From Candidatus Uhrbacteria bacterium GW2011_GWF2_39_13 (lineage in GTDB: Bacteria; Patescibacteriota; Patescibacteriia; UBA9934; GWF2-40-263): a stretch of DNA of 59,900 nt. The notes under the pieces are model-generated. The model worked only from the letters and a program-made list of their open reading frames with translations. It searched no databases and was not told the origin of the DNA. The translations under genes were made by a program, and so were the position numbers. Below are positions 31,320 through 54,604 of the stretch, piece after piece. The stretch's first letter is position 1. Each line of letters opens with the position of its first letter. The DNA is taken from contig LBWG01000008.1 of NCBI GenBank assembly GCA_000993535.1, positions 1 through 59,900 of the forward strand, given 5' to 3'.

Positions 31320-31344
31320 AAAGGTGTTTCAAGTGGGGAAAATT

Positions 31345-32139: not shown

Positions 32140-32185
32140 AAAAATTATTTTTATTGCGCAAATAAAAGACGTAGGAAAAAATCTT

Positions 32186-32953: not shown

Positions 32954-32980
32954 AAATTTAAATAAGGAAATATTGAAGTT

Positions 32981-34006: not shown

Positions 34007-34020
34007 AAAAGGAAAAAGTT

Positions 34021-36594: not shown

Positions 36595-36621
36595 TAAATA
36601 TCAACTAGGGAAAAAGCAAAA

Positions 36622-37758: not shown

Positions 37759-37771
37759 AAAGGTAAAAACC

Positions 37772-38656: not shown

Positions 38657-38663
38657 GTGAAAA

Positions 38664-39521
38664 ATGGATGTTGTTCAGGAAATAAGACTGATGTCCATAA
38701 TGGCGCATCAGGATGATTTTGAATTTACTGCGGCTGGCACGTTTGCCCTCATGAGAAAACATTACGGGGATAAGGTCAGAATTAAAATATTGACCACCAC
38801 CCGCGGGGCTTCGGGGCATCATCAGATGAACACTGAAGAGACATTCAGGAGGAGAGATGCAGAGGCCCGCAGAAGCGCGGAAACAATCGGCGCTGAATAT
38901 GAGTGTCTCAAATGCCTGGACGGAAATCATGTCGAAGCGCAGTTCTTCCCGGATAGAAACGCTCTCGGCGGTTTGTGGAACGCGATAAGAAAATTCCGTC
39001 CCGATTACATATTCTGCCCTCCTGTAATAAACAATCCTCTGGCAGGCATTCATGTTGACCATTACAATACGGCGGTGGCGGTAAGGATGCTGGGGTATCA
39101 GCTGACAGTTCCTCATGCTTATCCGGTGACAGGTGATGCGGTGGCTGAACGGGTGGATTTCCCTCTCATAATAAATGTGGATGACATGTATGCCAGAGAA
39201 AACGAGTGGCATTTCTGCATAGATGTGAGCGAAGTTTACGATAAGAAAAAAGTTCCCATGGCGCTCTGTCATGAATCGCAAATTTTTGAATGGCTTCCGT
39301 GGAATGCAAACATTCAGCCACCAACGACTGAACAATTCAAAGAAAACTTTATAAACAGGCATTTAAACATAAATAAACGCTATGGCCTGAATGATGGTAT
39401 TATGAGAGAGTTTTTCAGGATTACGGGCTGGAGTCGGAAATCTCTGCCAAAAGATTTCAAGACCATATTTCAGCGCATGAGCTTATCGGATGTCGGAAAG
39501 GAAGTATTGGAGAACGGATAG
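38664..39521 (+). CDS. PIG-L/LmbE-family deacetylase
   Basis: 285 aa. LMSIMAHQDDFEFTAAG is an AHPDD-type signature. A second His/Asp region is at HVDHYN. Confidence 0.75.
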   Translation: MDVVQEIRLMSIMAHQDDFEFTAAGTFALMRKHYGDKVRIKILTTTRGASGHHQMNTEETFRRRDAEARRSAETIGAEYECLKCLDGNHVEAQFFPDRNALGGLWNAIRKFRPDYIFCPPVINNPLAGIHVDHYNTAVAVRMLGYQLTVPHAYPVTGDAVAERVDFPLIINVDDMYARENEWHFCIDVSEVYDKKKVPMALCHESQIFEWLPWNANIQPPTTEQFKENFINRHLNINKRYGLNDGIMREFFRITGWSRKSLPKDFKTIFQRMSLSDVGKEVLENG

Positions 39522-39587: not shown

Positions 39588-39843
39588 CAGTATCCCTAAT
39601 TCCTAAAGGGTGTCATAATTTATTGCGGTCACACACACAAGATAGAAACGGTATTTTTTTGAGTTTGAGAGTATCACATAATAATAATACAAGTTCGAAA
39701 ATCATGGATGCTCTGGCATTCATCAAGAACAAACCCAAGTCCACTTTTTACTAAAATCGTAAATTTGACGAATAGTTGACTGAAGGATGGATTGTTCAAA
39801 TCAATCCTTCAGTTTCTGGAAGCCAATATTTGGAGACTACAAA
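39588..39843 (+). repeat. copy C of the dispersed repeat family, filling the gap between two convergent operons
   Basis: 39652-39843 aligns by eye with 18275-18467. Contains the hairpin 39782-39810. The left end is CAGTATCCCTAATTCC. The right end (GGAGACTACAAA) stops 1 nt before the TAA (39844-39846, complement) of the GH42-like gene. Confidence 0.6.
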
Positions 39844-41916
39844 TTATATTTCATATTTTATAATTGCATGGCGCATTATGGATTTCAAAATTGTTTCATG
39901 TCGACAATTATTTTTTTGCCAGGAAAGCTTGACAGGTTCTTTTTTTTCCGGTAAATAAAGCAATGAATTTTTCGGGATATGACCGCTTAATATGGAAAAA
40001 TTCATGTCAACTCCTCCCTTTAATTCTCCGCAGCGCATAAGCAGACAGCCCTGAGAATTGTCAGAAAACAGGACCCAGTCATGTCTGACTTCCGGATGCC
40101 CGTATATTTTTACGGGTTCGAGATCGGTTTTCAGCCATTCTATCATGCCGACAATTTCGTCCGCATTATATGGGTCTTTCCAATAGCGGCTGTCTATCGA
40201 GTTGTAATGGACATTATGTTTCGACTGGAAGACTCCCGGCTTGTATTTATAATCGATTTTTCCGATATATGCACATTTTCCCTTTCCGTACGTTGAGGTA
40301 ATGTTCTCTCCATTTTTCTGCGCCGTGGAGAATTGTTTATTAGGGTCGTAGTTCGCCGTTTCCTCAGTGGAGTCGGAACTGCCTGAAAAACTTCCGCCGA
40401 AAAGTTCAGCGAAAGCAGGATTGCAGCGTTTTCTGAAATCAACATTGAAAGCTCCTGACTTTTCAGTAACAAGAAGGGCAGCGCCATTTTTAACAAACGA
40501 AAAAATGACAGAAAGCTGAGTCTCGGAAATATATTCCGCATCAGGCAGTATCAGGAGATCAAAATCTTTTAATCCTTCTTCTGTTATAAATTCATCCTGG
40601 ACAATACTGAAAGGAATGCGGCGCTTGAAAAGAATATGCTCCATCACACACGCTGAAATATGAGAATCGTAATTAACAAGGGCCAATGACCTCTGATTTC
40701 GCCATACCGCAATGCGGGCTAAAGGCTTTACACCGCAATAAATATTTTTATGGCAGTTGAAGAAATCTGATAATTCCTGTATGCCGGGGCCCGGCTCCTC
40801 CAGAGCATTTTTCCTGGGTTCTGCGTATCCCCATCTGGAATAGATTCCGGGATTGCCAGAGAATGTCAGGTTAAAGCTCATTTCCTCATCAGTTTTAAAG
40901 GCCGTAATAACACTTTTTCCCAAGCGTCTCATGAGGTTCATTCCGCGCATCTTATGAGTCACCCTCGGTATTGCGTCAATATCGGTATCGGGACGCAAAT
41001 CAGGATTTTCTTCCCACACTATATCTACATATTTAGCCTGCGCCGTTGAATTGATGCCGTGAGTGAAAGCCTGGTTCACGCCCCACACCGACTGGCCGTT
41101 GGAATCTATGGCTATGCATGGATTCACTTTTTTGGCGTATTCAGATAATTCCTTAATATAATCAGTCACTGTGTCGCAGCGGAACTCGATCCATTCCTGC
41201 ATCAGGGGATTTTTTATTCTTTCCAGTTCCCATGGATTAAGGAAACGGAGATAGAAGTTAGGGGCCCTGAATGTTTCAAAGCCACCAAAACCGAAACGTT
41301 TTTTCTGTTCGTTTTCCGACGGATACCGCAGCCGCAGGAATTCCCTGAATTTTTCCTGGCAGTACCGGCAGTGACAGCTGTCCGGCTCCGGCCATACCGC
41401 CAAATTATCAAAATGCAATAAATCCGTTTTCACATAATTAACGGCTTTTTCTATTTGCTTTTTCATGTGTTCGCGCCAGCCGGGGGAATTGAAACATGCA
41501 ACCCATCGCCATGATTGTTCCCCTCCGTAATGGACAAATCTGTTGTCATGCGTATGCACAACCCAGTCTTCACAGTCCGGATAATCTTTCAGCATGGATT
41601 CAAAATAAACGGTGTTTGCAAGATATACCCCGTGTTTCATGTTATGCTTATGGCATAATTCTGCCAACTGCCTGGCTTTTTCCTGTTCTTCTTTCTGATC
41701 AGTGTCGCTTAATCCACGGTCGAACTGTCCGACTATCAAATTTATTCCGAGCAGTTTCAGTCTGGCAATCCGCTCTTCGCTGTATTCCCATTCATATAAT
41801 TCCTCTTCATTGTCCAGAGCGTTTCCGGCCCTTAATCTTCCGGCTAACGGGTGCCATCCTCCGGCAAGATAGATTCCTTCATTTTTCCACCAGTCATTTC
41901 TCTGTTGCGTAATCAT
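39844..41916 (-). CDS. GH42-like glycoside hydrolase (beta-galactosidase-family architecture), cytoplasmic
   Basis: 690 aa. VACFNSPGWREH and the C-x-C-x2-C cluster CHCRYCQEKFREFLRLRY mirror the GH42 zinc-site/FR.WL region. FDLLILPDAEYISETQLSVIFSFVKNGAALLV resembles the GH42 trimerisation (GATase1-like) domain. Confidence 0.6.
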   Translation of the reverse strand: MITQQRNDWWKNEGIYLAGGWHPLAGRLRAGNALDNEEELYEWEYSEERIARLKLLGINLIVGQFDRGLSDTDQKEEQEKARQLAELCHKHNMKHGVYLANTVYFESMLKDYPDCEDWVVHTHDNRFVHYGGEQSWRWVACFNSPGWREHMKKQIEKAVNYVKTDLLHFDNLAVWPEPDSCHCRYCQEKFREFLRLRYPSENEQKKRFGFGGFETFRAPNFYLRFLNPWELERIKNPLMQEWIEFRCDTVTDYIKELSEYAKKVNPCIAIDSNGQSVWGVNQAFTHGINSTAQAKYVDIVWEENPDLRPDTDIDAIPRVTHKMRGMNLMRRLGKSVITAFKTDEEMSFNLTFSGNPGIYSRWGYAEPRKNALEEPGPGIQELSDFFNCHKNIYCGVKPLARIAVWRNQRSLALVNYDSHISACVMEHILFKRRIPFSIVQDEFITEEGLKDFDLLILPDAEYISETQLSVIFSFVKNGAALLVTEKSGAFNVDFRKRCNPAFAELFGGSFSGSSDSTEETANYDPNKQFSTAQKNGENITSTYGKGKCAYIGKIDYKYKPGVFQSKHNVHYNSIDSRYWKDPYNADEIVGMIEWLKTDLEPVKIYGHPEVRHDWVLFSDNSQGCLLMRCGELKGGVDMNFSILSGHIPKNSLLYLPEKKEPVKLSWQKNNCRHETILKSIMRHAIIKYEI

Positions 41917-41969
41917 TTAAAACCTCAAATTTATATTGCTTGGTACATTGAATTTTTTCTTTTAAAATG

Positions 41970-43424
41970 TCAAAAACTTAACGGGAAAAGCTCTTTGGGT
42001 TTAGCGTTAATAACGCTTTTACCTATCGCATAAGCTTCATCCATAGAGGATATCTTTTTTTCCTTCAGAAGTTCATTTAATATTTCGGCTATAAGCTTTT
42101 TGTTGGAATGCGCCATGCCCGCGCTGCCTTCGATATTAGCCATATCCAGGCCGGCGACAGTTCTGTATGGAAATTCAGAAATGAATGCTTTTGCCATTTT
42201 TCTGCCGAGTTCAGGTTCAAGCAGCGGTATCCAGGTAAAATCGGCAATTGCGTTTTTATATCTGGCGCATAAATCAAGGACCTCATTATAATAATGTTTA
42301 CCTCCGTGGAGGAGAATGAAGTTCATATCGGGATTTTTGGCAATCACCTCTTCAAGGAGGGCCGGCCGTGATGTTTCAATATCTTTGCCTTTATGTCCGG
42401 TGTGAATTTGGATTGTCTGCCATTTACGGTCTCTGGCCATGTTTATGCATCTGAAAAAAATGAAATCTTCAAAAACCCGAAGCGTCTCTTCAAAATCCAT
42501 ATCCTGAGAATCCAGAAATTCAGACTGCAATTTATTGAAAGCCTTTCTTGCATCTTTTTCTTCCCGCTCTCTGAATTCGACAGTCCTCGCGAAACAGCAG
42601 GCGCTCTTCATCTGGGATACTCCTCTGGATGCGAAATAATCAAAAGCTTTATCGAGAAAAACAAGATATTCGTCAAAAGATATGCTTTTCAGATATCTGT
42701 TAATTTCTCTTATGTGAATTTGAGACATTTCCCATGGTTTTCTGAGCGGAATGACCGGCAGTCCATTAATGTCCTGCACAAATTCCAGAAACCATTTGGC
42801 GATAGCGAAATCGCGTCGATACCTGAAAGGGAGGACCAGCGCATAATCAAATCTGAAAGTCGCGGGAAGAAACTTAAGTTCAAGTTGTTTATTTTCTTCT
42901 GTCAAATTATCAAAGTGTTCACGGGCATATCTGCTGGTCCAGATATTTATGCTTCTCACAATTCCGGCCTTCCTGTATGCGCCAGGCAGATGTTTCAGAA
43001 TTCCATCCTTGTATGCGGCCTTCACTCTCAGCGAAAGTTCCACATATTGTTTTCTGTCGGACATGTCCAGCTCCGGCATCTCGTAAAGTATTTTAAATCC
43101 ATCCACAAGCGTTTCTAAAGATTTCTCGCCTGAAAACTTTTTAAAATACGGTTGCGCCAACTCATAAGCGGCCATTTCGTTTTCAACGCATACGGACAGG
43201 AATTCCCACTTGTTTTTGTAAGGAAAACTTTCCGCTCTCACAAATAAATTACCCGCATAATCCTGAAACAGCAATTCAATCGGATTCCGGATGGCACGTC
43301 CTGTGTTTCTGAAAGAACCGTCAGGGTACCATTCATCTTTTTCCCAATGAAAATGAAAATCGCAGTATCCTGTCTCCATGATTTTCTTCTCAATGTTCTG
43401 TTCTGTTTCAATGCCCATAGTCAA
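41970..43424 (-). CDS. amidohydrolase-superfamily TIM-barrel protein (function unknown)
   Basis: 484 aa. YCDFHFHW near the N-terminus, IQIHTGH, NFILLHGG, and AIADFTWIP near the C-terminus are consistent with metal-dependent hydrolases of the amidohydrolase-2/UxaC-like type. Confidence 0.5.
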   Translation of the reverse strand: MTMGIETEQNIEKKIMETGYCDFHFHWEKDEWYPDGSFRNTGRAIRNPIELLFQDYAGNLFVRAESFPYKNKWEFLSVCVENEMAAYELAQPYFKKFSGEKSLETLVDGFKILYEMPELDMSDRKQYVELSLRVKAAYKDGILKHLPGAYRKAGIVRSINIWTSRYAREHFDNLTEENKQLELKFLPATFRFDYALVLPFRYRRDFAIAKWFLEFVQDINGLPVIPLRKPWEMSQIHIREINRYLKSISFDEYLVFLDKAFDYFASRGVSQMKSACCFARTVEFREREEKDARKAFNKLQSEFLDSQDMDFEETLRVFEDFIFFRCINMARDRKWQTIQIHTGHKGKDIETSRPALLEEVIAKNPDMNFILLHGGKHYYNEVLDLCARYKNAIADFTWIPLLEPELGRKMAKAFISEFPYRTVAGLDMANIEGSAGMAHSNKKLIAEILNELLKEKKISSMDEAYAIGKSVINAKPKELFPLSF

Positions 43425-43461
43425 TGCAAGTCCTGTTTTACAATTTTATACGTTCATGGCC

Positions 43462-46400
43462 CTATTTAAATATCAATTGTCCGTAACCGAAAACATCGTC
43501 TTTTGCAAAAGAGGCTCCGGACCAATCATATTCAGCTTCAAGTTTTCCGTCCTTGCTGTCGCTGTCCCGGCAACTGATATCAAACCCGAAAGTCTCTCCT
43601 TTCTTTACTCCAAAACCTGAGCGCTCAAGTGGAATTCTTGCAATATAACGCCTCTGGAATTTTTCCGCCCTGGAAACGGTTTCGACCTTAATTTTATTTC
43701 CGTCGGGCAATAAAAATTCCGCATCGGCTTTATCATTTTTAATAAAGACTACTTTCAATTTGAAGAGGTTCTTTGATTCTCTGTTTCCGATGTTTTTCAT
43801 AAGGTCCGGCTGAAAAACATATTCAACGCTTTCATTCCAATCACCCGGGATATCCGTTTTTTCGGGAATAATCAACTCGTCCTCGATAATACCGCCGACA
43901 TAGAAATATTTGTCATCATAGCGGATGAAATGCCTCGACATATAATCATGTTCCATTGATCCGTCGAGCTGCATATTGGGGTCGGTATTTTCTCCGCCGC
44001 ATCTGATCTGGCACCTTTGATATGAGCCGTTCAAGCCCCAGTTGACGTAAACTGACGCCGGAGACTGGAGTTTCTCCCATTGCTCCAGGAGCGTCAAATC
44101 AAATTTCCCGCTTTTCTCCGGCTCCGCATAATGGAGCCAGAAAAAATCTCCTGACTTCATGTAATTTCCCTCTGCCGTATTGACAAGGAGTTCGTCTGTC
44201 TTCTCCTCAACGGCAGTGGAGAAAAAATCATTTATCTCAAGCTGCGCGTAAACGGGATAGTTGCTTATGGCCCTGCCGTCAAAAACACCTTTGTCCTGTA
44301 TGCTGGTAAAGATTTTCCATTCGCCCGGCTTGACGTTAAAATCAAATATTTCAGGGGATTTTTTATAAAGCATATCCTTATACATTGTAAGTTTTCCGGA
44401 AAGCGTTTCAGCAGTGTTATTCTTTATAAAGCCGATGCACTCGGTCTGATCATTTTTCCGAGCGATAATGAAACGCGTTTCAAGCAGATCAATAACCTGC
44501 ATTTTTTTTACGGCCTCGAGAAGCTTCCTGTTTTTGCTTCCTATGAAAAGGGTCTGACCTCTTTTCATGATGATTTTTTCAGGGTTGAGAGGCGCCAGGT
44601 GAAAGTCAAGAACAGTCAGTTCTTTCGGATCAATACCAAGCTTCAGCTCTTTCAGCAGCGCGGGGGCCGGAGCATGAAGAACAACCCATGTCATATCTTT
44701 TATAGTAAAATAACATACTTCGATATTGCTGGCCCTGTCGGGAAAAAGGAGACCTCCCGCCTCCGCCTCGCGCATGAACTGCTCAAGAATTATCCATTGG
44801 GCGGCGGCGAAAGTAGGACGCCCGTCATAAATGGAAAACTGGTTAAAAGGATCGGTGGCATACATCCCGTATTTACCGACATATACGGAATATCTGACCG
44901 GACGGTATATTGACGTGATGACTGCCAAATCCCATGCCTGTTCATTGAAATAATCATAGTATTTTGCCGCGCTGAGGGGATTTCCGGTTTTATCGAACTG
45001 CTGGATGTCAGCGCAATTGTAGTACCAGCCAACCCCATCTATGAAAAACGGCAGATTGTTTTCTTTGTTGAACCTGTTTTCCCGGACATACCACCATTTC
45101 CCGGTGTTGTAACGGCTTCCTCCGTAGGTATCGGTAATTTTGCCCTTCACTTTTCCGATTTCCTTTTTATATGCCTCCGCGGGCAGGAACTCGAAGGAAT
45201 TCATGACTTCGACATCCGGATATTTTTCTTTTACGGCTTTGTATGTCGCGAGAAGATAAGGAAGGGCAGACCTGGCAGACATGTTATTAGTAAGTTCATC
45301 GGTAAGGATTATCATATTGTAATAAAGCCCTTTGTAATTCTCGAGAACGGACTGAACATACCATGCGCCGAATTCGGGGGACATCCACGGTTTTCCGCCA
45401 TTTGCCGCCGGCGTGTCCGAATAGACCGGAACATCATAAGGAGGAAGCTGAACAGGAAATATCCATGGTATCCATTTCAAACCTGAATTGATATTTTTCT
45501 CGACTTCGTTTCTGTAAAGGGCATGGTCATGATATCCTCGGCACGTCTGGTCAGCCTTGATTACAACATCATTCAGCGTAGTGACAAACTCATACCCATA
45601 ATGCCTTAACATTTTTCCTGAACGCTCCCTGATGTTCCTGCCCAATGCCCCCAGATAAACCGGATGTTTTGAAGCTTTTTCCATGGCCGCAGGATTCTGG
45701 ATTCTGCTGAAGGGCACGTTCAATATTTTTCCATCGTCTGTTTTTGCTGTGAGCATGAAATTTCCATATCCGTTAAAATTATCAAACTCGAAACTTTTTC
45801 TGCTTACGCCTTTGCCTCCCGATATTTTGAGGTCTCCCGAACCATATGTATTCCCTGCGACATCTTTAACTGTATACTTAAGCTTGAATTCTTTTTGCGT
45901 TTCCGTGTCATTAACGAGCACGGCTTCGAATTTTATATTTTCATTGTCATGGAAAGCCGAATACGGTGCCAGTACCGCTACCAGAACGGAAGCACCTTCC
46001 CCTTCCATGTATAAAGGATGGGCTTTTTCAGCCGGGACATAAGCCTGGACTGCATCAAGCTCCAGAGTGGCTCCGGGCTCTTCGCTTTCAAGCGCGAAAA
46101 GCAAAGCGATTTCTTCAGGCTTTCCCGATCTGAACTCGTAATCATACTTTTTCCATTCATTGCCAATTTTGAATTCTTTCACTGCGATCTGTTCTCTTTT
46201 TCCTTTAAGCGGTGAACCGGACCACTTGACGATTTTCAAAGACAATTTTGTATCGGGCTTATATGCTCTTGCCTGAAAACTGATATCGCAGCCTTCAATA
46301 GGAATCTCGAAATATTTACTTCCAATACCGGCACGATATTTCTTTGCGCCCTTATAATCATCCGGGTAAGCGCCTGCCTGAACAGCTTGCATCCTGGCGT

Positions 46401-47433
46401 ATCTTTTGCCATGAGGGGCATCTCCTTCTATTATGTCTCCGACGTCAAAAGTAAAATCGTCCTCTCCATCCATTCCCGGATTCCAGTAAGGCCTTCCTCC
46501 CGCTTCAAAACTGCCGTCAGTCACAAGATTGCCTTTATATTTTTTTCTGTTTTCATCCGCATTTTTCTTTTCCGGCGTTGAAGCCGCCGTTATTTTTCCT
46601 TCTTTCTTTTCGGATGCCAGGGTGAGGTCATACTTGCTCTTCAATCCTTTTTTCCACTCATATCCCGGTTCGTTGCTTATCTTCACTTTATCTATAATTA
46701 TGTATGGCAGACTGAATTCAGGGACATCGCCAATGCCGCCCGAGGCTATCTCCTCCGCAGTGATCCTTAATGCATTCCAGTCCGAGTTTGCTTTGACGAC
46801 AGGGTCTTCCAGGACGATGCTGTTTTTTTCTTTTACAAAACCGTTTGCCGTATTTTCAATATATGCAGTGCTGCTGCTTTTCAGACAGGGAATAAAACTG
46901 TAGCCGCTCCCGAAAAAAGGATACAGCTTTAAAATCGCAACGGGGGTGAAACCAGTTTTATCGGCCTTTCCAAGTTCAATCCTTACGATATTGCCTGATG
47001 GCGCGCCGTAATCAGTTCTCCTGTTTTTAGTCCAGCGGGTAAGCACGATCTGTGCGCCTATGAGATAATTTCCTGGAGGAAAATTGCGGTCGAAGACTTT
47101 AAGCATTCTTGCCGCTTCGCTCTCCGAATCGCAGACGGCAAATGCCCTTCCCGAGGCATGGGTATGTTCTTTCACATAAAACCCCTGTCCTTTTTCACGA
47201 TGAAAATCCGGATATACTTTGAGATTGTCAAAATCTTCAGCTTCCACAATTATATTCACCGGCTCACGGGGAACTTCTGTTATTTTGTTTTTAAAAAGAC
47301 TGTTTTCTTTGTCCGCCCGAACAGAATTATCTCCAAGAAGGAAGAGCGAAAAAAGCAGCGGCAATAAATATTTTGCTCTCAGCGGTCTGACGCTTGAAGC
47401 CGGAATTTTACTGTAAAAATTTAACAAGTCCAT
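43462..47433 (-). CDS. giant secreted hypothetical protein (1323 aa) with CBM4_9-like module(s) and a putative clan GH-A-like barrel
   Basis: Signal-like N-terminus (...KYLLPLLFSLFLLGDNSVRA). GNLVTDGSFEAGGRPYWNPG is a CBM4_9/galactose-binding-like opening strand. It shares LATYKAVK plus overall layout with the adjacent 1151-aa ORF. Confidence 0.5.
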   Translation of the reverse strand: MDLLNFYSKIPASSVRPLRAKYLLPLLFSLFLLGDNSVRADKENSLFKNKITEVPREPVNIIVEAEDFDNLKVYPDFHREKGQGFYVKEHTHASGRAFAVCDSESEAARMLKVFDRNFPPGNYLIGAQIVLTRWTKNRRTDYGAPSGNIVRIELGKADKTGFTPVAILKLYPFFGSGYSFIPCLKSSSTAYIENTANGFVKEKNSIVLEDPVVKANSDWNALRITAEEIASGGIGDVPEFSLPYIIIDKVKISNEPGYEWKKGLKSKYDLTLASEKKEGKITAASTPEKKNADENRKKYKGNLVTDGSFEAGGRPYWNPGMDGEDDFTFDVGDIIEGDAPHGKRYARMQAVQAGAYPDDYKGAKKYRAGIGSKYFEIPIEGCDISFQARAYKPDTKLSLKIVKWSGSPLKGKREQIAVKEFKIGNEWKKYDYEFRSGKPEEIALLFALESEEPGATLELDAVQAYVPAEKAHPLYMEGEGASVLVAVLAPYSAFHDNENIKFEAVLVNDTETQKEFKLKYTVKDVAGNTYGSGDLKISGGKGVSRKSFEFDNFNGYGNFMLTAKTDDGKILNVPFSRIQNPAAMEKASKHPVYLGALGRNIRERSGKMLRHYGYEFVTTLNDVVIKADQTCRGYHDHALYRNEVEKNINSGLKWIPWIFPVQLPPYDVPVYSDTPAANGGKPWMSPEFGAWYVQSVLENYKGLYYNMIILTDELTNNMSARSALPYLLATYKAVKEKYPDVEVMNSFEFLPAEAYKKEIGKVKGKITDTYGGSRYNTGKWWYVRENRFNKENNLPFFIDGVGWYYNCADIQQFDKTGNPLSAAKYYDYFNEQAWDLAVITSIYRPVRYSVYVGKYGMYATDPFNQFSIYDGRPTFAAAQWIILEQFMREAEAGGLLFPDRASNIEVCYFTIKDMTWVVLHAPAPALLKELKLGIDPKELTVLDFHLAPLNPEKIIMKRGQTLFIGSKNRKLLEAVKKMQVIDLLETRFIIARKNDQTECIGFIKNNTAETLSGKLTMYKDMLYKKSPEIFDFNVKPGEWKIFTSIQDKGVFDGRAISNYPVYAQLEINDFFSTAVEEKTDELLVNTAEGNYMKSGDFFWLHYAEPEKSGKFDLTLLEQWEKLQSPASVYVNWGLNGSYQRCQIRCGGENTDPNMQLDGSMEHDYMSRHFIRYDDKYFYVGGIIEDELIIPEKTDIPGDWNESVEYVFQPDLMKNIGNRESKNLFKLKVVFIKNDKADAEFLLPDGNKIKVETVSRAEKFQRRYIARIPLERSGFGVKKGETFGFDISCRDSDSKDGKLEAEYDWSGASFAKDDVFGYGQLIFK

Positions 47434-47477
47434 TATGTTCCTCCATATTATTTTAAACTTATTTGCCTATTGTCTTT

Positions 47478-50400
47478 TCATTCCACAATCATCAGGCGGG
47501 CCCATTGTTCAGGATTTATCAATTCCACTTTTCGCGAGTCGGGAAAATATATATTATTTGTATAAACAACGTCATTTTTGTTTTGAAGGGACACGGCTTT
47601 TATGTCACAGGCGTAATTTGTTCCCGGAGCACTTGTGAAATCAGGTATTTTAACAAGAGGTATGCTGAAGCTGACAGAATAAGGTTTCGTATTTGTGACA
47701 GTGACGGGAAAGGACGTTTCCGCCGTTTTGTCCTTTCCTTTTTCGCCGCCCGATATAATTCCATTCTTATTGTTTGTTGTTATTTCAAGGCAGGTTTTTT
47801 TGTTCATCAGCAATTCTCCGTCTGAAAGATTTATTGGAATAAATGTAAAAGAAAAACTTTTAAAGCTCATTCCGTTTACTGTTCCGGTAAATGTTACATT
47901 CAGGTTATTTTCCGCAATCGCAAAGGAAACGGAAGCAACTTTATTTGCATTGCTGCCATATAGATTTAAATCCTGCCCGGGAGTTTTCCTGTTTTCTGAC
48001 AGAAATATCGGGGTATAACGCAATGGATACGTTCCAAAAATAGTTCCGTATTCCGTGTCAATATTCAGCGGCAGGATTCTTTCAACGGCCTTCATTACAG
48101 ATTCTCTGTAAGGCATATTTACCAGATATGTATTTCCCGGGAGCTTCTCAGATTTTAATTCCGAGACTTTATTCGTATTGAACGGGTCTTCTATAGTCGT
48201 TTCCGCATGGAGAGGAATGGAGCTGTGAGGTTTTATGAACAATTTGATCCCGATAGCTCCGGAAGAGCGTTTCTCCATCCCGAAAACAATCGGAAGCTTC
48301 TCCGTGAATTTCAGCGCCTTAAGTTCCTTTCCGGCGGCATTTAAATCATTTATTTTTAAATAGAGGGGATATGAAGAAATATGGTAATTCAGTTTCCCGT
48401 CTTTTTTCCAATTTTTTACCGGATTTCCGAAACTGTCCATGACGTCGGCGATGCCATCGGCATTCATTGAAATATCATAAACTTTTCCGTCCACGCTGTA
48501 GATAATGCCAATTCCCTCATTGGCCCCTTTTTTTACAAGCCCGATTCTTAATTCTTCAAAATCATCGATTGATTCCGTCCCCTGGTGCCCTCCCAATAAA
48601 TAATTCGCCGCCGCATAGAAATGGAACACAGGCTTAATGCGCCCCGCCTCGTCAAAGAGGCACGCCCCGGTATTTTTTCCCGGGAACACCCCATAATAAA
48701 AGTAACGGCAATTTGAAGCGCCCCAAATCACGCCATCCAGAAGTTCCTGGACTGTCTTGAGTTCTTTTTCTCTTTCGCCAGAAAAATCCGGAGCTCCTTT
48801 CATCTCCTTGAAATCATGCGAGTAGGCAGGAGAATAACATGTCGCGGTAACAAGCGGTATATTGTGTTCTTTCAGGTAATCCCTGAATTCACGGGCTGCC
48901 GTCTTGCTTATTTTGCCGCTGTGCTGGCTGTCAAGATAAGCATGAATTCCATCCATATATTTATATGCCTGGTTATCCGTTGCCTTATTCAAGGCGTTCA
49001 GCAACTTCATGTCTTTTGCGACAAACATATCGAAGAATACGGGTATCTGCGGATCTACAGATTTGACAGCTTTGTATGTGGCCAGATAAAATTTCGCATA
49101 ATCCTCGGGCGAAAAATAATACACTGGCTCATCTTCTATTATATATTTACTCACGCGACCTTTGAAATGTTCAGCAAATTGCTTAACGTAGTCAAGCCAT
49201 AAAGCCATATTTATTTTTGTAGGTTTTCCTTCGCGCCGCGCTTTAACTTCAATGAATTCAGAGGGGTCGCTTCCATTGTACACACACAATTCCGGCACTC
49301 CATAACCGGAGCCGGCTGTATTGACATGCAGTTGAGCAACAGGCTTTATCCCGTCAGCCGCAAAACGTCCAACTTCCATATCCGCGTCTGTCCAGTCGTA
49401 CCTGATATTTTCTTTAGTTGAGTCCTTTGAAAGATTAGGTTTCCAGCGCGGAAATGGATGCCCCAGCGGATTAAATTCAATGATTCCGAATTTCTTCATG
49501 ATTTCCCCGTAACCGAATTCGGGGACGGGGGCCAGTGTATAGTATGCCCCAAGCAGACTTTTTTCCCGGAGATTATTTCGCGGTCCGACGGGCCTTATGA
49601 CATTATAGAAATAGTCGCTTTGCTTAGTGCAAGGCTTGCCGTTCCTGGTATATTCTGCCGTTGTGCGTATCCTGTAGAAACCCGAGCGGCCGGTGTCAAG
49701 GCAGAATTCCTTCTGCAAAGAGTTGCCCTTTACTTCAATCTCTTCCTTTTTTCCGACTTCCCTGTCAAAATAATCATATACATTGAAATAACAATTTTTC
49801 ACAAGCACGTCGGGAGATTTCTGAAGATTGAAAAGAACTTTTGCCTGTGAATTCAAGTCAAATATCGATTGAGTATTGGGCGGAATGAAGTTGGCTTCAA
49901 GCCCGCCGCATGGTTCATAACTTTTTCCATTACCCTCAGTTATCTGAAGCGAATCGACAAGCAGAGGTGTTTTCAGGGGGGCATCGACGGGTTTCTCGAA
50001 AGAAATGCGGTAAAGGCCATTTGTATCCTCGTCCGGCAGTGTCTTGAAACTGAAAGCGCTTTTTTTCCATCCCTTGACATCGGAGGCTTTTGCATTGTCG
50101 GCAACAATTTTTTTCACTTCCTGAAAAACGCCATCGTTTGAAGCCTCAATGCTTACAGTCACGGGCGTCTTATTTTCATCTGCAGTGTAAATGCTGAAAG
50201 CATAATCTTTAATGCCTTTGAGGACGAAAAGCCGCGATATTATCTTGACTTTTCCGATGTCAAGAGAATAATTTCCATGCGCGGCTTTTTTATTCAGCAG
50301 GAAAGGTTTTGTCATTTCATTGCTGCGGTACTTCTGCACGTCCCAGCATCTTATTCCCTCCTCGAAACCTGAATTGGGCAGCAAATTGCCTTCAGGGTTG

Positions 50401-50933
50401 GCCGGTATTTCCCTGACATATTTAAGGGTCTGATACCTGAATTTCTCCCGCTTCACTCCATGTTGATAAAAGGTTTCATATTTATATTCCGGGTCGTTGG
50501 TGAAAATAGTGGTGTACCATATGATCCTGCCTTTTTTCCCGTCAAGGGTTTCGGCCTTGAACTTTATCTCGTCCGAGGCTTCCTTAAGCTGGAACTTCAA
50601 TTCAGTCCAGTTGGATCTGTGGGTGTCTTTTTTAATGACAGCTTCCTCCGACAGGCTTCCTATGGTAATAGTAACCTTGATGTCATTTTCAGGAAAATGC
50701 CTTACATAAGCCCTGACTTCTCCTGGCCCTGCTTTGAAAGGCAGCCTTTTTTCCGCGGTCCAACTGCCTTCAAAACCTGTTAAGGATGGCCGCTCGCCTG
50801 AATATCTCCTGGCTTTCTCCACATTGTCAACGTCATCCATTGATAATTTATAAGTGAATACCTCAGGAGTTTTTTCAGCCCCGGCAAATATTGCCGACAA
50901 AAACAGGAACCCGATTATAAGCTTCTTTAACAT
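47478..50933 (-). CDS. giant secreted hypothetical protein (1151 aa), divergent paralog of the 1323-aa ORF
   Basis: Signal peptide MLKKLIIGFLFLSAIFAGA. It has a CBM-like EGNLLPNSGFEEGIRCWDV and a barrel-like region ...KYIIEDEPVYYFSPEDYAKFYLATYKAVKSVDPQIPVF... (DEP where clan GH-A enzymes carry NEP). Confidence 0.5.
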   Translation of the reverse strand: MLKKLIIGFLFLSAIFAGAEKTPEVFTYKLSMDDVDNVEKARRYSGERPSLTGFEGSWTAEKRLPFKAGPGEVRAYVRHFPENDIKVTITIGSLSEEAVIKKDTHRSNWTELKFQLKEASDEIKFKAETLDGKKGRIIWYTTIFTNDPEYKYETFYQHGVKREKFRYQTLKYVREIPANPEGNLLPNSGFEEGIRCWDVQKYRSNEMTKPFLLNKKAAHGNYSLDIGKVKIISRLFVLKGIKDYAFSIYTADENKTPVTVSIEASNDGVFQEVKKIVADNAKASDVKGWKKSAFSFKTLPDEDTNGLYRISFEKPVDAPLKTPLLVDSLQITEGNGKSYEPCGGLEANFIPPNTQSIFDLNSQAKVLFNLQKSPDVLVKNCYFNVYDYFDREVGKKEEIEVKGNSLQKEFCLDTGRSGFYRIRTTAEYTRNGKPCTKQSDYFYNVIRPVGPRNNLREKSLLGAYYTLAPVPEFGYGEIMKKFGIIEFNPLGHPFPRWKPNLSKDSTKENIRYDWTDADMEVGRFAADGIKPVAQLHVNTAGSGYGVPELCVYNGSDPSEFIEVKARREGKPTKINMALWLDYVKQFAEHFKGRVSKYIIEDEPVYYFSPEDYAKFYLATYKAVKSVDPQIPVFFDMFVAKDMKLLNALNKATDNQAYKYMDGIHAYLDSQHSGKISKTAAREFRDYLKEHNIPLVTATCYSPAYSHDFKEMKGAPDFSGEREKELKTVQELLDGVIWGASNCRYFYYGVFPGKNTGACLFDEAGRIKPVFHFYAAANYLLGGHQGTESIDDFEELRIGLVKKGANEGIGIIYSVDGKVYDISMNADGIADVMDSFGNPVKNWKKDGKLNYHISSYPLYLKINDLNAAGKELKALKFTEKLPIVFGMEKRSSGAIGIKLFIKPHSSIPLHAETTIEDPFNTNKVSELKSEKLPGNTYLVNMPYRESVMKAVERILPLNIDTEYGTIFGTYPLRYTPIFLSENRKTPGQDLNLYGSNANKVASVSFAIAENNLNVTFTGTVNGMSFKSFSFTFIPINLSDGELLMNKKTCLEITTNNKNGIISGGEKGKDKTAETSFPVTVTNTKPYSVSFSIPLVKIPDFTSAPGTNYACDIKAVSLQNKNDVVYTNNIYFPDSRKVELINPEQWARLMIVE

Positions 50934-50957
50934 TTTGATATCCCTTCCTTAAAATTT

Positions 50958-51764
50958 TTAATTTTGATCTGCAATATTTGCCATATCATGAATATCCTTC
51001 GCCTGAAGGCCGAGGGCATCAATAAAATATTGGAAGTCTTTTACAGCTTCGAGTTCTTTAATTCCGTGAGCGTCGCTTCCAAAAGTAAATTTGCATCCGG
51101 CTTCCTTGGCGATTGCAAGGAATCTCACCGGCGTCTCAATGCTGAAAAAGCGGTTTTTAGCCGCGTTTGGCAAATAACAGGGATTGATTTCGATGCCTGT
51201 ATTCTTTGCCGCCGCCACGGCGCACGCGTCAAAGAGTTCCGCATCGGATATTGATGCCATCGCTGTATCATACATATCTATGAAACCATATGGGAAAAAT
51301 GGATGCGCCAGAATATCCCCCATGCCGCTTTCCGCCGCGGAAATGAAGAATTTGAGCATATGCCGCCCAAGTGTCCGGGAATCGGAATTCTCCGGCTGTT
51401 CAACAAAATCCTTCATGTGAAAATGGTCGGAGGACAGAAGCACATAGTCCATTTGCCTTTTGAAATCATCCGTAATGCCGAATTTTCCCGGAGCAATCAT
51501 GTCCGCTTCACATCCGACCAGCACTTCAATCCCCCAATCACGGCTTTGCGCAATCTCTTTAAGCTTTAAATGTTCCTCTCCCGACTGTTTGTTGTAAAAT
51601 CCGGACGGCTTGTACATATCCGATACCCATACGTGATCGGCAAAACCGATTTTTTTCAAGCCCATGTTTTTCGTGGCTTCCGTTATATTTTCAATAGTCT
51701 GTTCTTTGTCATGACAACACGGAGAAGCAGATGTATGTATGTGTAAATCAGATAAAATTCTCAT
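50958..51764 (-). CDS. PHP-domain phosphoesterase (histidinol-phosphatase-like)
   Basis: 268 aa. LSDLHIHTSAS, GFADH, SSDHFH, LAHPF and FGSDAHG motifs. Confidence 0.75.
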   Translation of the reverse strand: MRILSDLHIHTSASPCCHDKEQTIENITEATKNMGLKKIGFADHVWVSDMYKPSGFYNKQSGEEHLKLKEIAQSRDWGIEVLVGCEADMIAPGKFGITDDFKRQMDYVLLSSDHFHMKDFVEQPENSDSRTLGRHMLKFFISAAESGMGDILAHPFFPYGFIDMYDTAMASISDAELFDACAVAAAKNTGIEINPCYLPNAAKNRFFSIETPVRFLAIAKEAGCKFTFGSDAHGIKELEAVKDFQYFIDALGLQAKDIHDMANIADQN

Positions 51765-52621
51765 CGCAGGTCCCTTTCAAAAAAACGGTCGCACAAACGC
51801 CCCTGCACAAATGTCTTGTCAAAATTGTAATCACTTTTGAAGCCGGCTTCAGCGGCCATGGAAATTGTCTTCATGGACAATTTTGTTTCAGTGACTTCAA
51901 ACAGCTTGAACTCAAACGGCGCTTCCGTAAAGGCTGACACCGTAATGTAATTCACTCCGTCCAGTTCTACATTCATATTCATATGATTGTGCGCGCCTAA
52001 TACTGCTTTTACAGACAATTCATCTGCTATTTTTCGCATTGTCATGGAAAAATCGCCTTCAGGCAAATGCAGCGGATTTTTCAAACCGCTCTGTTCGCAA
52101 GGAAGTCCCAATACCGGCGAATGAACAATTAAAAACAGCGGTTTGGAAACAGTCCCGTATTTTCTCAGCGCTTCCAATTGGGAGGCTGAAAAATATGGTA
52201 TTTGTTTTTCCGCCGGGTCCCAGAAATACGGTTTCTTTCCCCAGTGACAGGTCAGAAAATAAAAATCCATTTCATCATGTGAGAATGGGAAATTCACCGA
52301 ATTTCCGGAAAAATATTCAGGGGCCTTATTCAACCAATATCCTACGGCGTCATCTGAAGTAAGATCGTGATTTCCCAACGCAATATGGACGGGACATGGC
52401 AACTGTCTGAAGAATTTCAATGCCGCGTCTATGTTTTCAGCGCTCGAACTGTCAACCATATCTCCGCCGTGAATTATGAAATCTATATTCTTCTGCTTTT
52501 CTATCCATCCGGCAAGGCACTCCATCAATTCTGAAATATGCAAGAGATAACGCGGCTGCTGCCGGTAGCCCTCGCTATCTGAACCGCCGATATGAGTGTC
52601 TGCAAGATAAATAAATTTCAT
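51761..52621 (-). CDS. calcineurin-like metallophosphoesterase
   Basis: 286 aa. MKFIYLADTHIGG, HGGDMVD, LGNHD and GAHNHMN are the canonical MPE motifs. 4-nt overlap with the PHP gene. Confidence 0.85.
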   Translation of the reverse strand: MKFIYLADTHIGGSDSEGYRQQPRYLLHISELMECLAGWIEKQKNIDFIIHGGDMVDSSSAENIDAALKFFRQLPCPVHIALGNHDLTSDDAVGYWLNKAPEYFSGNSVNFPFSHDEMDFYFLTCHWGKKPYFWDPAEKQIPYFSASQLEALRKYGTVSKPLFLIVHSPVLGLPCEQSGLKNPLHLPEGDFSMTMRKIADELSVKAVLGAHNHMNMNVELDGVNYITVSAFTEAPFEFKLFEVTETKLSMKTISMAAEAGFKSDYNFDKTFVQGRLCDRFFERDLR

Positions 52622-52648
52622 ACAGGATTTCCCCAGTAATTTTCAATA

Positions 52649-53440
52649 TCAATCTTTATTATGTGTCCAGTATTTTCTTTTTGAGAGGACGCTTTCCGTA
52701 TCCAAGCCCGCTATGTCCGAAGTTTTTTTTGCTTCAACATGGCAATCGAAAAATAAGGCATTTCCTTTATTTATGTGCCTCGGTCCGAATGTCGGCACAG
52801 TATCCGCTTCATACCAATTGCGTCGGGGTTCACAGAACGTACTGAGTCCTGAAGTGTTTAATCTTTTCCGTATATCACTCAACGCTATTGTGTCGGGACT
52901 TACCGAGAGGCTTCTCACATGGTAAAGCTGATTGGCGACAGGATTACATTTATACCCCATTCCGGTTGTCCCCCATCCGTAAGAGTTCCACCCGTAAGGA
53001 TTGTATTCTTTTTCTGTCGGATTGGCAAGGTAATCAGACTCTATCGGCAGAAGTTTTATCCCGGGACAGTCAAATATGGTGCCTTTTAGATATCTGTAAT
53101 AACTTGAGGTTGCATAATCAGCGTATTTGGGATTATTCAAGGCATATCCAATCAGGCCGTTTTGAGAAGTCCACGCCCCGCACCCCCCCTGGCTTGCCTC
53201 CATCCAGCCGACCGGGCACCAGTCGTTGTTGTCGCCGATATACGACGTCAGACATGTCCCGATATTACGCAGATTACCGGAACACTGGATCATGCGGGCC
53301 CGGTCTTTCGCCGCTTTCAGTCCCGGCAAAAGAAGGCTCGCCAGAATTGCTATAATGGAAATGACTATCAGCAATTCCAAAAGAGTAAAATACAGTTTCT
53401 TTCTTAACGGACAAATAATTTTTTCACCTTTAATACTCAT
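52649..53440 (-). CDS. prepilin-type N-terminal methylation-domain protein, DUF1559-like
   Basis: ...KKLYFTLLELLIVISIIAILASLLLPGLKAAKDRAR... The C-terminal HINKGNALFFDC is an H-X9-D variant. It overlaps the upstream LacI gene by 11 nt. Confidence 0.8.
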   Translation of the reverse strand: MSIKGEKIICPLRKKLYFTLLELLIVISIIAILASLLLPGLKAAKDRARMIQCSGNLRNIGTCLTSYIGDNNDWCPVGWMEASQGGCGAWTSQNGLIGYALNNPKYADYATSSYYRYLKGTIFDCPGIKLLPIESDYLANPTEKEYNPYGWNSYGWGTTGMGYKCNPVANQLYHVRSLSVSPDTIALSDIRKRLNTSGLSTFCEPRRNWYEADTVPTFGPRHINKGNALFFDCHVEAKKTSDIAGLDTESVLSKRKYWTHNKD

Positions 53441-54476
53441 TTCCTTTTTTCTTTCGTAGTTTTGTTACGGTTTCGCCTGCGATAAATCCATAAGGAACAA
53501 AAGTTCTCCAGTCTTCCGGATTTTCTCCATTGATAATGGCAATCAGGGAGCTGACGGCATACTCGGCTATTTTTGTCTGGGATACGGTAAAAGAGCTGAG
53601 TCTGGGAGTCAAATGAGCATACCTGTCATAGCAGTTTCCAACACACATTATCGAAATATCTTCCGGTACTTTTATTCCTTTTGCCGGGGCAATTTCCAGA
53701 AGTTTCGCGCCTGCTGGCATATCCGTAAATATGGCTGTAGGCCTTATCTTCGCGGGCATCGCAAGCCATTTCTCAAGTGTCTTGCCCAACAGGGACGTAT
53801 CGACGCTGTTCCTGATGAAAAGCCAGTCGTCATTGAAGCCCGGATTATTTTTTTTCATCGTGAAAGCATATCCCTGCATAGTTCTCAGGGCATCTTCCCA
53901 ATCGTTCACATTGGCAGCCAGGTGGGCAATATTCCTATGGCCCAGCGACCACAGATATTTGACGGCTTTACATGCTATTTCATAATAATCGGAATTGGCG
54001 GAGGCAACACCATCCGGAACATTACTTTTAAGAAGGACTACAGTCGGGAAATTTTTCTTTCCAAGGTATTCTGACGCGTTTTGACGAAGAGATTCGTTGA
54101 ATATAACCCCGTCTATTCTTCCATCCAGAAATTTTATCGGATTTACAATATCAGTGCCTCTGATTACTTTTTCCCCGAGATAAAACATCACATCATAGTC
54201 GCTCTTTTCGGAAACGGCGTTTATAATGTATTGAAACATTTCAGATAAATTAGGTATCTTGAAGTACCCCAGCCCGATGGTGTTTGTTTTGCCATTCTGA
54301 AGCGACTTTACCATATTATTGGGGGAATAGCCGAGCTCCTCTATTGCCTTGTTAATCCGTTCGACAGTCGTTTTCGAAAAGTTGAAATTGAGCTTGTGGT
54401 TCAATATGCATGACACCGTCGTGGGGGAAACCCTGGCATACTTTGCCACGTCTCTGATGGTTGGAAGCCTGTTCAT
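53430..54476 (-). CDS. LacI-family transcriptional regulator
   Basis: 348 aa. The N-terminal PTIRDVAKYARVSPTTVSCILNHK is the LacI HTH, and the rest is a Peripla_BP-like sensor domain. Confidence 0.85.
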   Translation of the reverse strand: MNRLPTIRDVAKYARVSPTTVSCILNHKLNFNFSKTTVERINKAIEELGYSPNNMVKSLQNGKTNTIGLGYFKIPNLSEMFQYIINAVSEKSDYDVMFYLGEKVIRGTDIVNPIKFLDGRIDGVIFNESLRQNASEYLGKKNFPTVVLLKSNVPDGVASANSDYYEIACKAVKYLWSLGHRNIAHLAANVNDWEDALRTMQGYAFTMKKNNPGFNDDWLFIRNSVDTSLLGKTLEKWLAMPAKIRPTAIFTDMPAGAKLLEIAPAKGIKVPEDISIMCVGNCYDRYAHLTPRLSSFTVSQTKIAEYAVSSLIAIINGENPEDWRTFVPYGFIAGETVTKLRKKKGNEY

Positions 54477-54497
54477 GAAGCCTCTTTATTAAACATA

Positions 54498-54508
54498 GTT
54501 TAGTAAAC
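54498..54508. promoter_or_regulatory. small palindrome GTTTA-G-TAAAC upstream of the LacI gene (possible operator)
   Basis: A 5+1+5 palindrome read directly, 22 nt upstream of the LacI start. It is short, AT-rich and not the classical LacI-family CG-centred consensus. Confidence 0.25.
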
Positions 54509-54604
54509 TTAATTTAATTATATGACTTTTTTGCGAATTGTCAAGAGATTTTCCAGTAAAAAAAACACTTTTTACAAAAAAAGTTTTTCCCCGCCGCAAG
54601 ATGT

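Follow-up and report, generated by a model that had tools for sequence, protein, structure and literature searches.

A stretch of 59,900 nucleotides of contig LBWG01000008.1 from Candidatus Uhrbacteria bacterium GW2011_GWF2_39_13, referred to as the window in the following, carries on its minus strand eight co-directional genes (positions 39844–54476 in the open reading frame (ORF) listing) which are headed by a gene for a LacI-family regulator and include the genes for two very large proteins, named G1 and G2 here. The explanation favoured, with a probability of about 0.6, is that these genes form an operon under LacI control which serves the breakdown of a complex glycan, and in which the two giants adopt the fold of glycoside hydrolase (GH) clan GH-A without its canonical nucleophile and have a GH42-like enzyme as partner. 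Utilisation of a glycan is supported. In guts, sediments and digesters, Lentisphaerota and other bacteria of the Planctomycetes–Verrucomicrobia–Chlamydiae (PVC) group degrade complex glycans, but the majority of the large proteins that they export lack annotation. The puzzle of eight genes could be reduced to a testable core, consisting of the pseudopilin-like protein, G1, G2 and the GH42-like enzyme, and to a catalytic anomaly in the giants, an Asp-Glu pair which is kept together with a nucleophile which is lost. The system is a good target for the discovery of carbohydrate-active enzymes (CAZymes). The eight genes are as follows.

53430–54476, minus strand: LacI-family regulator, 348 amino acids (PF00356 E 1.8e-14, PF13377 E 2.3e-19)
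52649–53440, minus strand: pseudopilin/DUF1559-like protein, 263 amino acids (weak N_methyl, DUF1559 and GspG-like matches)
51761–52621, minus strand: calcineurin-like metallophosphoesterase (MPE), 286 amino acids (PF00149 E 4.4e-14)
50958–51764, minus strand: PHP-domain phosphoesterase, 268 amino acids (PF02811 E 4.7e-10)
47478–50933, minus strand: G1, predicted exported multidomain protein, 1151 amino acids (AlphaFold2 (AF2) model, Foldseek and homologue profiles)
43462–47433, minus strand: G2, predicted exported paralogue of G1, 1323 amino acids (profile homology)
41970–43424, minus strand: Amidohydro_2-like protein, 484 amino acids, TTG start with an ATG two codons on (PF04909 E 1.5e-9)
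39844–41916, minus strand: GH42-like protein, 690 amino acids (PF02449, 28 bits)

Fold and catalytic positions of the giant proteins

A preliminary description of this DNA had taken both giants for secreted proteins of no recognised family which open with CBM4_9-like modules and contain a barrel-like segment; of these points the absence of a family match (in Pfam, NCBIfam and the PDB), the CBM4_9-like module and the barrel were borne out. Signal peptides were assessed by inspection of the N-termini. Signal-peptide-like sequences are found in G1 (MLKKLIIGFLFLSAIFAGA/EK) and in G2; MPE, PHP protein, amidohydrolase and GH42-like protein have none and are thus predicted to be cytoplasmic. G1 is composed of a signal peptide (residues 1–19), a beta domain (27–172), a CBM4_9-like carbohydrate-binding module (CBM; 180–335), an Ig-like domain (345–446), a (β/α)8 barrel (about 458–780) and beta-sandwiches (785–1151). 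In G2 an N-terminal beta domain (EAEDF...) is followed by a CBM4_9-like module, an Ig-like domain, a degenerate barrel, beta-sandwiches and a C-terminal CBM9-like module. The CBM_4_9 matches of both proteins are sub-threshold (E 8e-4 in G1, E 2e-3 for residues 295–480 of G2), and the CBM9_1 match at the C-terminus of G2 is weak (E 5e-3). Neither a GH match in Pfam or NCBIfam nor a PDB sequence match to a GH chain was obtained for G1 or G2; direct searches of the PDB with both proteins and a search with the G1 family profile yielded only a CBM-type match and sub-threshold GH5/GH39 fragments.

The AF2 model of G1, calculated from a 16-sequence alignment, reached a pLDDT of 81.6 and a pTM of 0.78 and shows eight strand-helix units at about residues 458–780. 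Foldseek matched it to GH2, GH39, GH5, GH66 and GH10 structures, the GH39, GH10, GH5 and GH2 barrels at a probability of 1.00, and the best rigid superposition was found with the GH39 enzyme 5jvk (TM-score 0.66 over the target). The model of G2 (residues 291–1323, 6-sequence alignment) had a pLDDT of 57, with values below 50 in the barrel, and its Foldseek matches (GH2-like domain order, TM-score about 0.15) were set aside as evidence on account of the poor model, so that the barrel of G2 was recognised by profile homology alone. With multidomain glycosidases of the GH2 type, which ranked first by Foldseek E-value for either model, the giants share the order of a jelly-roll sugar-binding domain, an Ig-like domain and a TIM barrel. 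This likeness is limited to the domain order because the global TM-scores are 0.12–0.29 with root-mean-square deviations above 20 Å; sequence similarity is absent.

Both families are very small, comprising 16 clusters for G1 and 6 clusters for G2 among 5.8 billion, and one marginal protein was all that a further, third search for homologues with the G2 profile contributed. When 1.84 billion representatives were searched exhaustively with a profile, G1 proper accounted for about 10 clusters; 263 proteins passed a limit of E ≤ 1e-10, and 883 passed one of E ≤ 1e-3. When 46 distant relatives of G1 were compared with Pfam, GH10 was matched by 19, GH39 by 8 and GH42 by 5 of them, CBM_4_9 by 23 and CBM9_1 by 12. 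The profile of their closest sub-clade detected GH10 xylanases (E 8e-8) and the GH39 enzyme 5jvk (E 1e-3) in the PDB. In hhalign the distant GH10/GH39-like set was aligned with G1 at a probability of 100 % (E 7e-70) and with G2 at 100 % (E 3e-63), and G1 with G2 at 99.3 % (E 3e-20, 781 columns). Since these profile–profile comparisons link G1, G2 and the distant set, they show the giants to be distant paralogues inside a clan-GH-A-like (GH10/GH39-like) superfamily which is unclassified and of which they form a very rare branch. To clan GH-A, as represented by 5jvk (BACCELL_00856) and the GH10 xylanases of Geobacillus, they are similar in the (β/α)8 barrel followed by a beta-sandwich, in a Glu at the acid/base position of β4 and, in G1, in the Arg of β2, the His of β3 and the His-x-Tyr of β6. 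The homology to GH10 and GH39 can be traced via intermediate sequences, a direct match to a GH family of Pfam or to the PDB being absent. The giants differ from these enzymes by their much larger size, with additional beta domains at both termini, by Asp-Glu in place of Asn-Glu, and by Thr-Cys (G1) or Gly (G2) in place of the Glu of β7.

Enzymes of clan GH-A, the 4/7 superfamily, have their acid/base Glu where strand β4 ends, within an Asn-Glu-Pro motif, and their nucleophile Glu where β7 ends. The corresponding positions in the giants are listed here.

49128–49133, minus strand: Asp601-Glu602 of G1 (IIEDEP), end of β4, aligned to 'weI.nEP' with Glu602 at the acid/base position
48837–48842, minus strand: Thr698-Cys699 of G1 (LVTATCY), end of β7, nucleophile position of clan GH-A
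45295–45300, minus strand: Asp712-Glu713 of G2 (LTDEL), acid/base position of β4, aligned to the NEP of the relatives
45034–45036, minus strand: Gly800 of G2 (FIDGVGW), nucleophile position according to hhalign

Asp601 and Glu602 of G1, next to the model strand 597–599, are invariant in 16 sequences, with the Asp replacing the Asn of NEP. Thr698 and Cys699, at the model strand 694–698, are invariant as well, and the Glu of the 'W..E' motif of the relatives falls on Thr698 in hhalign, within ±1 residue. An Asp or Glu near the end of the β7 strand is found in none of the 16 sequences; G1 lacks the nucleophile Glu of β7. Retention of the GH-A positions Arg496, His536 and His664-x-Tyr666, together with more than 100 invariant residues, points to a constrained active site. 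In G2 the acid/base position Glu713 is invariant in the eight family members, seven of which have the preceding Asp, and the nucleophile position is occupied by Gly, Ala or Ser in all eight, never by Glu or Asp. Among the 46 distant relatives, 22 have NEP together with the nucleophile Glu, 17 have DEP together with this Glu (in V-E-Y), and five have a D-E pair without nucleophile. In all nucleophile-less lineages, including relatives with ADEA and GDEV, the acid/base Glu is fixed, which argues against a plain decay to a lectin and for general-acid chemistry without an enzymic carboxylate nucleophile.

Tentatively, and at less than even odds, G1 at least may therefore still be an enzyme which works without a carboxylate nucleophile of its own, neighbouring-group catalysis on a 2-acetamido sugar being the likeliest mechanism; Cys699 as nucleophile appears less likely than such substrate assistance. 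A doubtful extension of this idea is that G1, and perhaps G2, would represent a new GH-A-fold family without Glu nucleophile, acting via 2-acetamido participation, assisted by the invariant Asp-Glu pair, or via the invariant Cys at the nucleophile position, and would form together with the likewise divergent cytoplasmic GH42-like enzyme and the pseudopilin-like protein a Victivallaceae-specific module for an amino-sugar, possibly phosphorylated, glycan. To our knowledge neither substrate assistance nor a Cys nucleophile is known for clan GH-A, and no description of a GH-A family using substrate assistance was found in the open-access literature, where absence is not proof. The giants resemble the substrate-assisted glycosidases of families GH18, GH20, GH84 and GH123, which carry a D-E or D-D pair on a TIM barrel, in the adjacent Asp-Glu at a strand end and in the missing carboxylate nucleophile, a D-E pair being the hallmark of GH20/GH84-type catalysis (PMC10570127). 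They differ from these families in that no homology is detectable and in that the Asp occurs also in relatives which keep the nucleophile. If G1 is active, the largest glycosidase clan would turn out to be mechanistically more varied, and probably one or two new CAZy families would be defined.

Several points weigh against the favoured explanation. The evidence for it consists of sequence and structure prediction, and the content of the operon names no sugar. The assignment of the nucleophile position comes from profile alignment and predicted secondary structure. The Asp-Glu pair is ancestral to the clade with DEP and VEY, which keeps the nucleophile, and the Asp alone is therefore no sign of substrate assistance. 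In G2 the His positions of β3 and β6 are missing too and the protein was modelled poorly, for which reasons it may be non-catalytic. Finally, G2 orthologues occur alone in other genomes, beside unrelated genes, so that G1 and G2 need not act together.

It is conceivable, and on balance unlikely, that G1, G2 or both are pseudo-enzymes which capture the glycan on a dead glycosidase scaffold, on the cell surface or in the periplasm, for a pseudopilin-dependent uptake, cleavage being left to the GH42-like protein and unlinked enzymes. The nucleophile Glu missing from either family, the conserved β3 and β6 His missing from G2, the CBM-like modules, the steady pairing with a pseudopilin-like gene and an operon without transporter would all fit. 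An acid/base Glu which is invariant in both families and in their nucleophile-less relatives, however, is not expected after a loss of catalysis. G1 moreover keeps Arg496, His536 and His664-x-Tyr666 of the GH-A active site, and if no depolymerase were exported, the GH42-like enzyme in the cytoplasm would be left without substrate unless this were already an oligosaccharide.

Related loci and the phosphoesterase pair

Among 185,579 species genomes five full-length matches were found, all of them in metagenome-assembled genomes of Victivallis, Victivallaceae or Lentisphaerota, which makes it very probable that the window, too, comes from this group. Eight distinct G1 loci with visible flanks, nearly all from Victivallaceae/Lentisphaerota, could be compared, the window, L001 (the same as L007), L002, L005, L008, L009, L010 and L019; a further locus, L006, is cut by a contig end and stands outside these eight. 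A gene for the GH42-like protein adjoins G1 in all eight (43–63 % identity), and G2 or a G2-like gene (23–54 % identical) does so in six. A pseudopilin-like gene precedes the module in six loci as well (the window, L002, L008, L009, L010 and L019), and L001 also has one. The MPE-PHP pair occurs in two of the eight (the window and L001) and the amidohydrolase in the window alone. The closest relative is L002, with identities of 59 % for G1, 54 % for G2, 63 % for the GH42-like protein and 57 % for LacI. As its gene order, LacI-pseudopilin-G1-G2-GH42-like, matches that of the window with MPE, PHP and amidohydrolase left out, the window operon is, judged by this comparison, a five-gene core with three putative lineage-specific insertions.

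No description of this gene arrangement, or of Lentisphaerota CAZyme operons headed by DUF1559, was found in the open-access literature, where again absence is not proof. Similar to the SusC/SusD polysaccharide utilisation loci (PULs) of Bacteroidota are the exported depolymerases linked to a regulator, the intracellular finishing and the accessory esterase-type enzymes. The operon differs from them by having no SusC/SusD or transporter and by a pseudopilin-like gene after the regulator, which recurs in Lentisphaerota loci; SusC and SusD domains were absent from the eight genes and from the scanned ORFs of at least 150 amino acids, which cover nearly the whole window. The layout of regulator plus pseudopilin, which recurs in Victivallaceae and other Lentisphaerota and is seen four times in the window, may be for PVC bacteria what the PUL is for Bacteroidota.

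The occurrence of two phosphoesterases had led to the proposal, in the preliminary description, of a system for the utilisation of phospho-glycans, with housekeeping functions of the two enzymes named as evidence that would speak against it. In MPE the motifs DxH, GD, GNHD and GAHNH are all intact. Its alignment with Mre11/SbcD is confined to residues 1–92 (E 6e-5 to 1e-2, far under the cut-offs), and a role as housekeeping nuclease of this type was rejected on the basis of this sub-threshold N-terminal match, the length of 286 amino acids and the absence of a full-length or capping-domain match. The PHP domain scores 40.5 bits against a cut-off of 26.4 and matches the histidinol phosphatase 2yxo of T. 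thermophilus at E 1.6e-7; identity with the histidinol-phosphate phosphatase HisJ was rejected at 42.8 versus 90.2 for hisJ_fam/TIGR01856 and 61.4 versus 202 for PRK07328.

The orthologue of MPE in L001 is 40 % identical, and the MPE-PHP pair lies there 7 kb away from the G1/G2/GH42-like module and adjoins a GH92 alpha-mannosidase gene. An MPE homologue with 45 % identity is found in L017 in an unrelated gene context. At L016:1195–1510 internally deleted stubs of MPE and PHP with fused N- and C-termini, still overlapping by ATGA, sit between GFO/IDH/MocA oxidoreductase genes, far from any G1 or G2. The metagenome scan for MPE relatives gave three loci, too few for statistics. On account of the unrelated context in L017 and of the deleted stubs with their preserved ATGA, the pair behaves as a putative mobile two-gene unit which is able to decay and whose association with the giants is not obligate.

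Utilisation of a phospho-glycan, such as a phosphomannan, a teichoic-acid-like polymer or phosphorylated N-glycans or capsules, is a possibility which neither conservation nor predicted localisation favours, and it is judged rather improbable. The giants would cut the backbone, and MPE as diesterase and the PHP protein as monoesterase would strip the substituents. For this speaks that both genes of the pair are intact and, within the operon, translationally coupled through an overlap of 4 nt, that the same pair accompanies the GH92 gene in L001, and that alpha-mannosidase-type genes (GH38, GH63-like) are found near other relatives of G1 and G2; yeast-mannan PULs of Bacteroides include dedicated mannose-6-phosphatases. 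Both phosphoesterases, however, are without signal peptide and for this reason would be unable to act on an extracellular polymer beside the giants. The pair is missing from six of the eight loci, even from L002 with its otherwise identical gene order, its relatives in L017 and L016 stand among unrelated genes, neither protein attains an equivalog threshold, and an unrelated second PHP gene is present in another cassette of the window.

Some further genes were seen in the related loci. A gene of the URO-D family (uroporphyrinogen decarboxylase or MtaA-like methyltransferase fold) recurs upstream of the G2 orthologue in L003/L004 and, near the G1/G2/GH42-like module, at L008:13189–14256, which could hint at a methylated sugar substituent. 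Two families without Pfam match, of about 396–624 amino acids and of 575–579 amino acids, the latter with a GFN(A/G)IWLRA motif, are located beside the module (L001:3956–7596, L008:11885–13075, L009:16590–19725) and do not occur in the window. A module without G2, in which pseudopilin, G1 and GH42-like protein are followed by a second cytoplasmic GH42-type protein with GHL6/GLMA_2nd/GH42M matches, is found at L010:8407–12451 and at L019:10001–16882, the latter with an additional AraC regulator.

Organisation of the operon and proposed pathway

The close packing of the eight co-directional genes that had been described was confirmed. The ORFs of LacI and the pseudopilin-like protein overlap by 11 nt and those of MPE and PHP by 4 nt (ATGA), and the remaining intergenic spacers are 27, 24, 44, 37 and 53 nt. 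This layout and the family calls of the six smaller genes, which Pfam and NCBIfam reproduced, support the framing as a LacI-headed glycan-catabolic operon, and in agreement with the preliminary description the same two databases revealed no transporter among the eight genes. None of the six smaller proteins attains an NCBIfam equivalog threshold. Three sites were recognised around the genes.

54517–54544, minus strand: sigma-70-type promoter, TTGACA-16 nt-TATAAT, 12/12 consensus, 41 nt 5' of the LacI ATG
54490–54509, minus strand: candidate (predicted) LacI operator AGTTTAcTAAAC-tat-GTTTA, inverted repeats which overlap, located past the −10 box and ahead of the ribosome-binding site
39789–39807, no strand assigned: hairpin, possible terminator, 37 nt past the last gene in a convergent intergenic region; weak, T-run of the minus strand not clear

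The promoter (54544–54517) was the sole 12/12 match and the best one in a 16.7-kb scan, and the exact 13-mer palindrome of the candidate operator is unique within the operon region. Upstream of the LacI orthologue of L002, TTGACA is followed by ACTAAAC-ata-GTTTA at the equivalent position. No terminator-like sites were found by the hairpin scan in the intergenic gaps of the operon; over the 16.7 kb the count of terminator-like hairpins was about that expected from shuffled sequence. From the promoter, the palindrome with its counterpart in L002 and the gaps free of terminator-like hairpins, co-transcription of the eight genes as a single autoregulated unit can be inferred. The sign of the GC skew flips at about 40 kb, matching the switch of the coding strand, and the window gave no Rfam match to a riboswitch or any other RNA. 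Directly upstream of the operon and co-directional with it, a gene for a FAD-dependent oxidoreductase of family PF12831 (54605–55900, minus strand, E 1e-115) has its own divergent PocR-AraC regulator (56026–56976, plus strand); the strong promoter lies between it and the LacI gene, and the related loci have no equivalent of it.

The regulator belongs to the LacI/GalR class, with PF00356 at 53.6 bits and PF13377 at 70.6 bits, both over the cut-off; it stays under every NCBIfam equivalog cut-off, and it is its orthologue that heads the L002 operon.

The pseudopilin-like protein has a prepilin-type helix, FTLLELLIV, at residues 18–26 and a C-terminal H-X9-D(C)-H at residues 222–234. In an alignment with seven homologues FTL.EL and N..F.D.H are invariant. 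Its score for N_methyl is 16.4 against a cut-off of 21.2, that for TIGR02532 is 19.1 against 16.3. With the DUF1559 family of PVC bacteria ('prepilin N-terminal + H-X9-DG') it shares the FTLxELLxVIxIIxIL helix and the C-terminal H...N..F.DGH motif; it differs from this family by D-C-H replacing D-G-H and by database matches under the family thresholds. Phe18, Glu22 and the hydrophobic helix are present, and position −1 is Tyr, not Gly. In the pseudopilin-like genes of the window, L001, L002, L008, L009 and L010 the FTL(I/L)EL motif is preceded by Asn, Phe, Tyr, Glu or His, never by Gly; the window copy at 5152–5886 (minus strand) was identified via its Pfam N_methyl match alone, with its motif unread. 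As the canonical Gly before Phe is absent in the motifs read, classical processing of this Lentisphaerota family by prepilin peptidase appears questionable.

In the amidohydrolase the PF04909 (Amidohydro_2) match is confined to residues 324–399, with an N-terminal HFHW metal motif and a long insert. It has no PDB sequence match and no other Pfam family even at E 5, and a uronate-isomerase-like protein, considered on the basis of length and HxH motif, had nothing in its favour. The GH42-like protein exceeds the cut-off for PF02449 (Glyco_hydro_42; 28.0 bits versus 21) and stays under that for GH42M (22 versus 25.8). Its family is characterised by the invariant motif VWPEPD.CHC..C, and the family profile matches the Geobacillus GH42 enzyme GanB (4oif) at E 3e-8, which places Glu177 on the acid/base residue of GanB and PEP on NEY. 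A nucleophile was not found, neither with hhalign against the GH10/GH39-like set (probability 0.8 %) nor with a profile of residues 285–425 against the PDB. In common with GH42 beta-galactosidases are the barrel region, the Cys-x-Cys-x2-Cys, the aligned acid/base Glu, a middle region resembling the trimerisation domain and the predicted cytoplasmic location; different are Pro-Glu-Pro for Asn-Glu-Tyr and a nucleophile region which does not align.

In the proposed pathway, LacI would sit on the palindrome just past the strong promoter until it is released by a product of glycan breakdown. The pseudopilin-like protein, G1 and G2 would be exported, and the giants would attach to the polymer with their CBM-like modules and cleave it with the clan-GH-A-type barrel. 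Fragments would be imported via an unlinked transporter and broken down completely in the cytoplasm by the GH42-like enzyme, the constant genomic partner of G1. MPE, PHP protein and amidohydrolase would probably remove a substituent from the imported fragments; it may reasonably be guessed that a diesterase acts first and a monoesterase second. It is very improbable that the module acts in the manner of PslG, PelA and PgaB and reshapes an exopolysaccharide or biofilm matrix made by the organism itself instead of serving the feeding on an external glycan: PslG belongs to GH39, the family of the best rigid structural match of G1, several of these matrix hydrolases cut amino-sugar polymers with non-classical barrels, and deacetylase genes and a capsule-synthesis-like gene lie elsewhere in the window, but the LacI-type repressor, the cytoplasmic GH42-like enzyme and the genes for major facilitator superfamily (MFS) and ATP-binding cassette (ABC) transporters in related loci fit catabolism, and genes for glycosyltransferases or polymer export are absent in and beside the operon.

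Other gene cassettes of the window

Three more pseudopilin-like genes are present in the window, at 5152–5886 (minus strand), 30636–31319 (plus strand) and 32186–32953 (plus strand), one of which directly follows a GntR-type regulator gene; catabolic cassettes with a pseudopilin thus form a design that is repeated here. The window also contains a second PHP and a second Amidohydro_2 gene, two PIG-L de-N-acetylases, a polysaccharide deacetylase, a D-aminopeptidase and an aminotransferase. Among the accessory genes of its cassettes, those for phosphoesterases and amidohydrolases are common, and the amino-sugar flavour of the neighbourhood is mildly consistent with an N-acetylhexosamine or hexosamine substrate of the operon. 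A transporter was recognised by the Pfam scan at the following position.

5980–9132, minus strand: ABC sugar transporter (substrate-binding protein and two permeases)

Convergent to the operon, a cassette at 29450–39521 (plus strand) encodes a GntR/Peripla_BP_3 regulator, a pseudopilin, an M55 D-aminopeptidase, a second pseudopilin, a HEAT and GH2_N-like protein, an uncharacterised protein of 857 amino acids, a GFO/IDH/MocA protein, a xylose-isomerase-like TIM protein and a PIG-L de-N-acetylase; it has the design of regulator plus pseudopilin with an amino-sugar or peptide flavour. The genes at 22641–29267 (plus strand) code for a GDSL esterase, an uncharacterised protein of 365 amino acids, an M24 peptidase, the second PHP protein, which is not a close paralogue of the one in the operon, and a protein of 667 amino acids without Pfam match. 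The long region at 5152–22524 (minus strand) consists of several adjoining units, with a PocR-AraC regulator at their head and an IclR regulator inside. They include PIG-L, polysaccharide deacetylase, capsule/polysialyltransferase-like, GFO/IDH/MocA and short-chain dehydrogenase/reductase genes, the second Amidohydro_2 gene, a class-III aminotransferase, a GHL10-like protein, a zinc-dependent alcohol dehydrogenase, the ABC sugar transporter and the fourth pseudopilin. At the left end of the window (257–1977, minus strand) an AbiEii toxin/AbiEi antitoxin pair of type IV, the abortive-infection type, is found.

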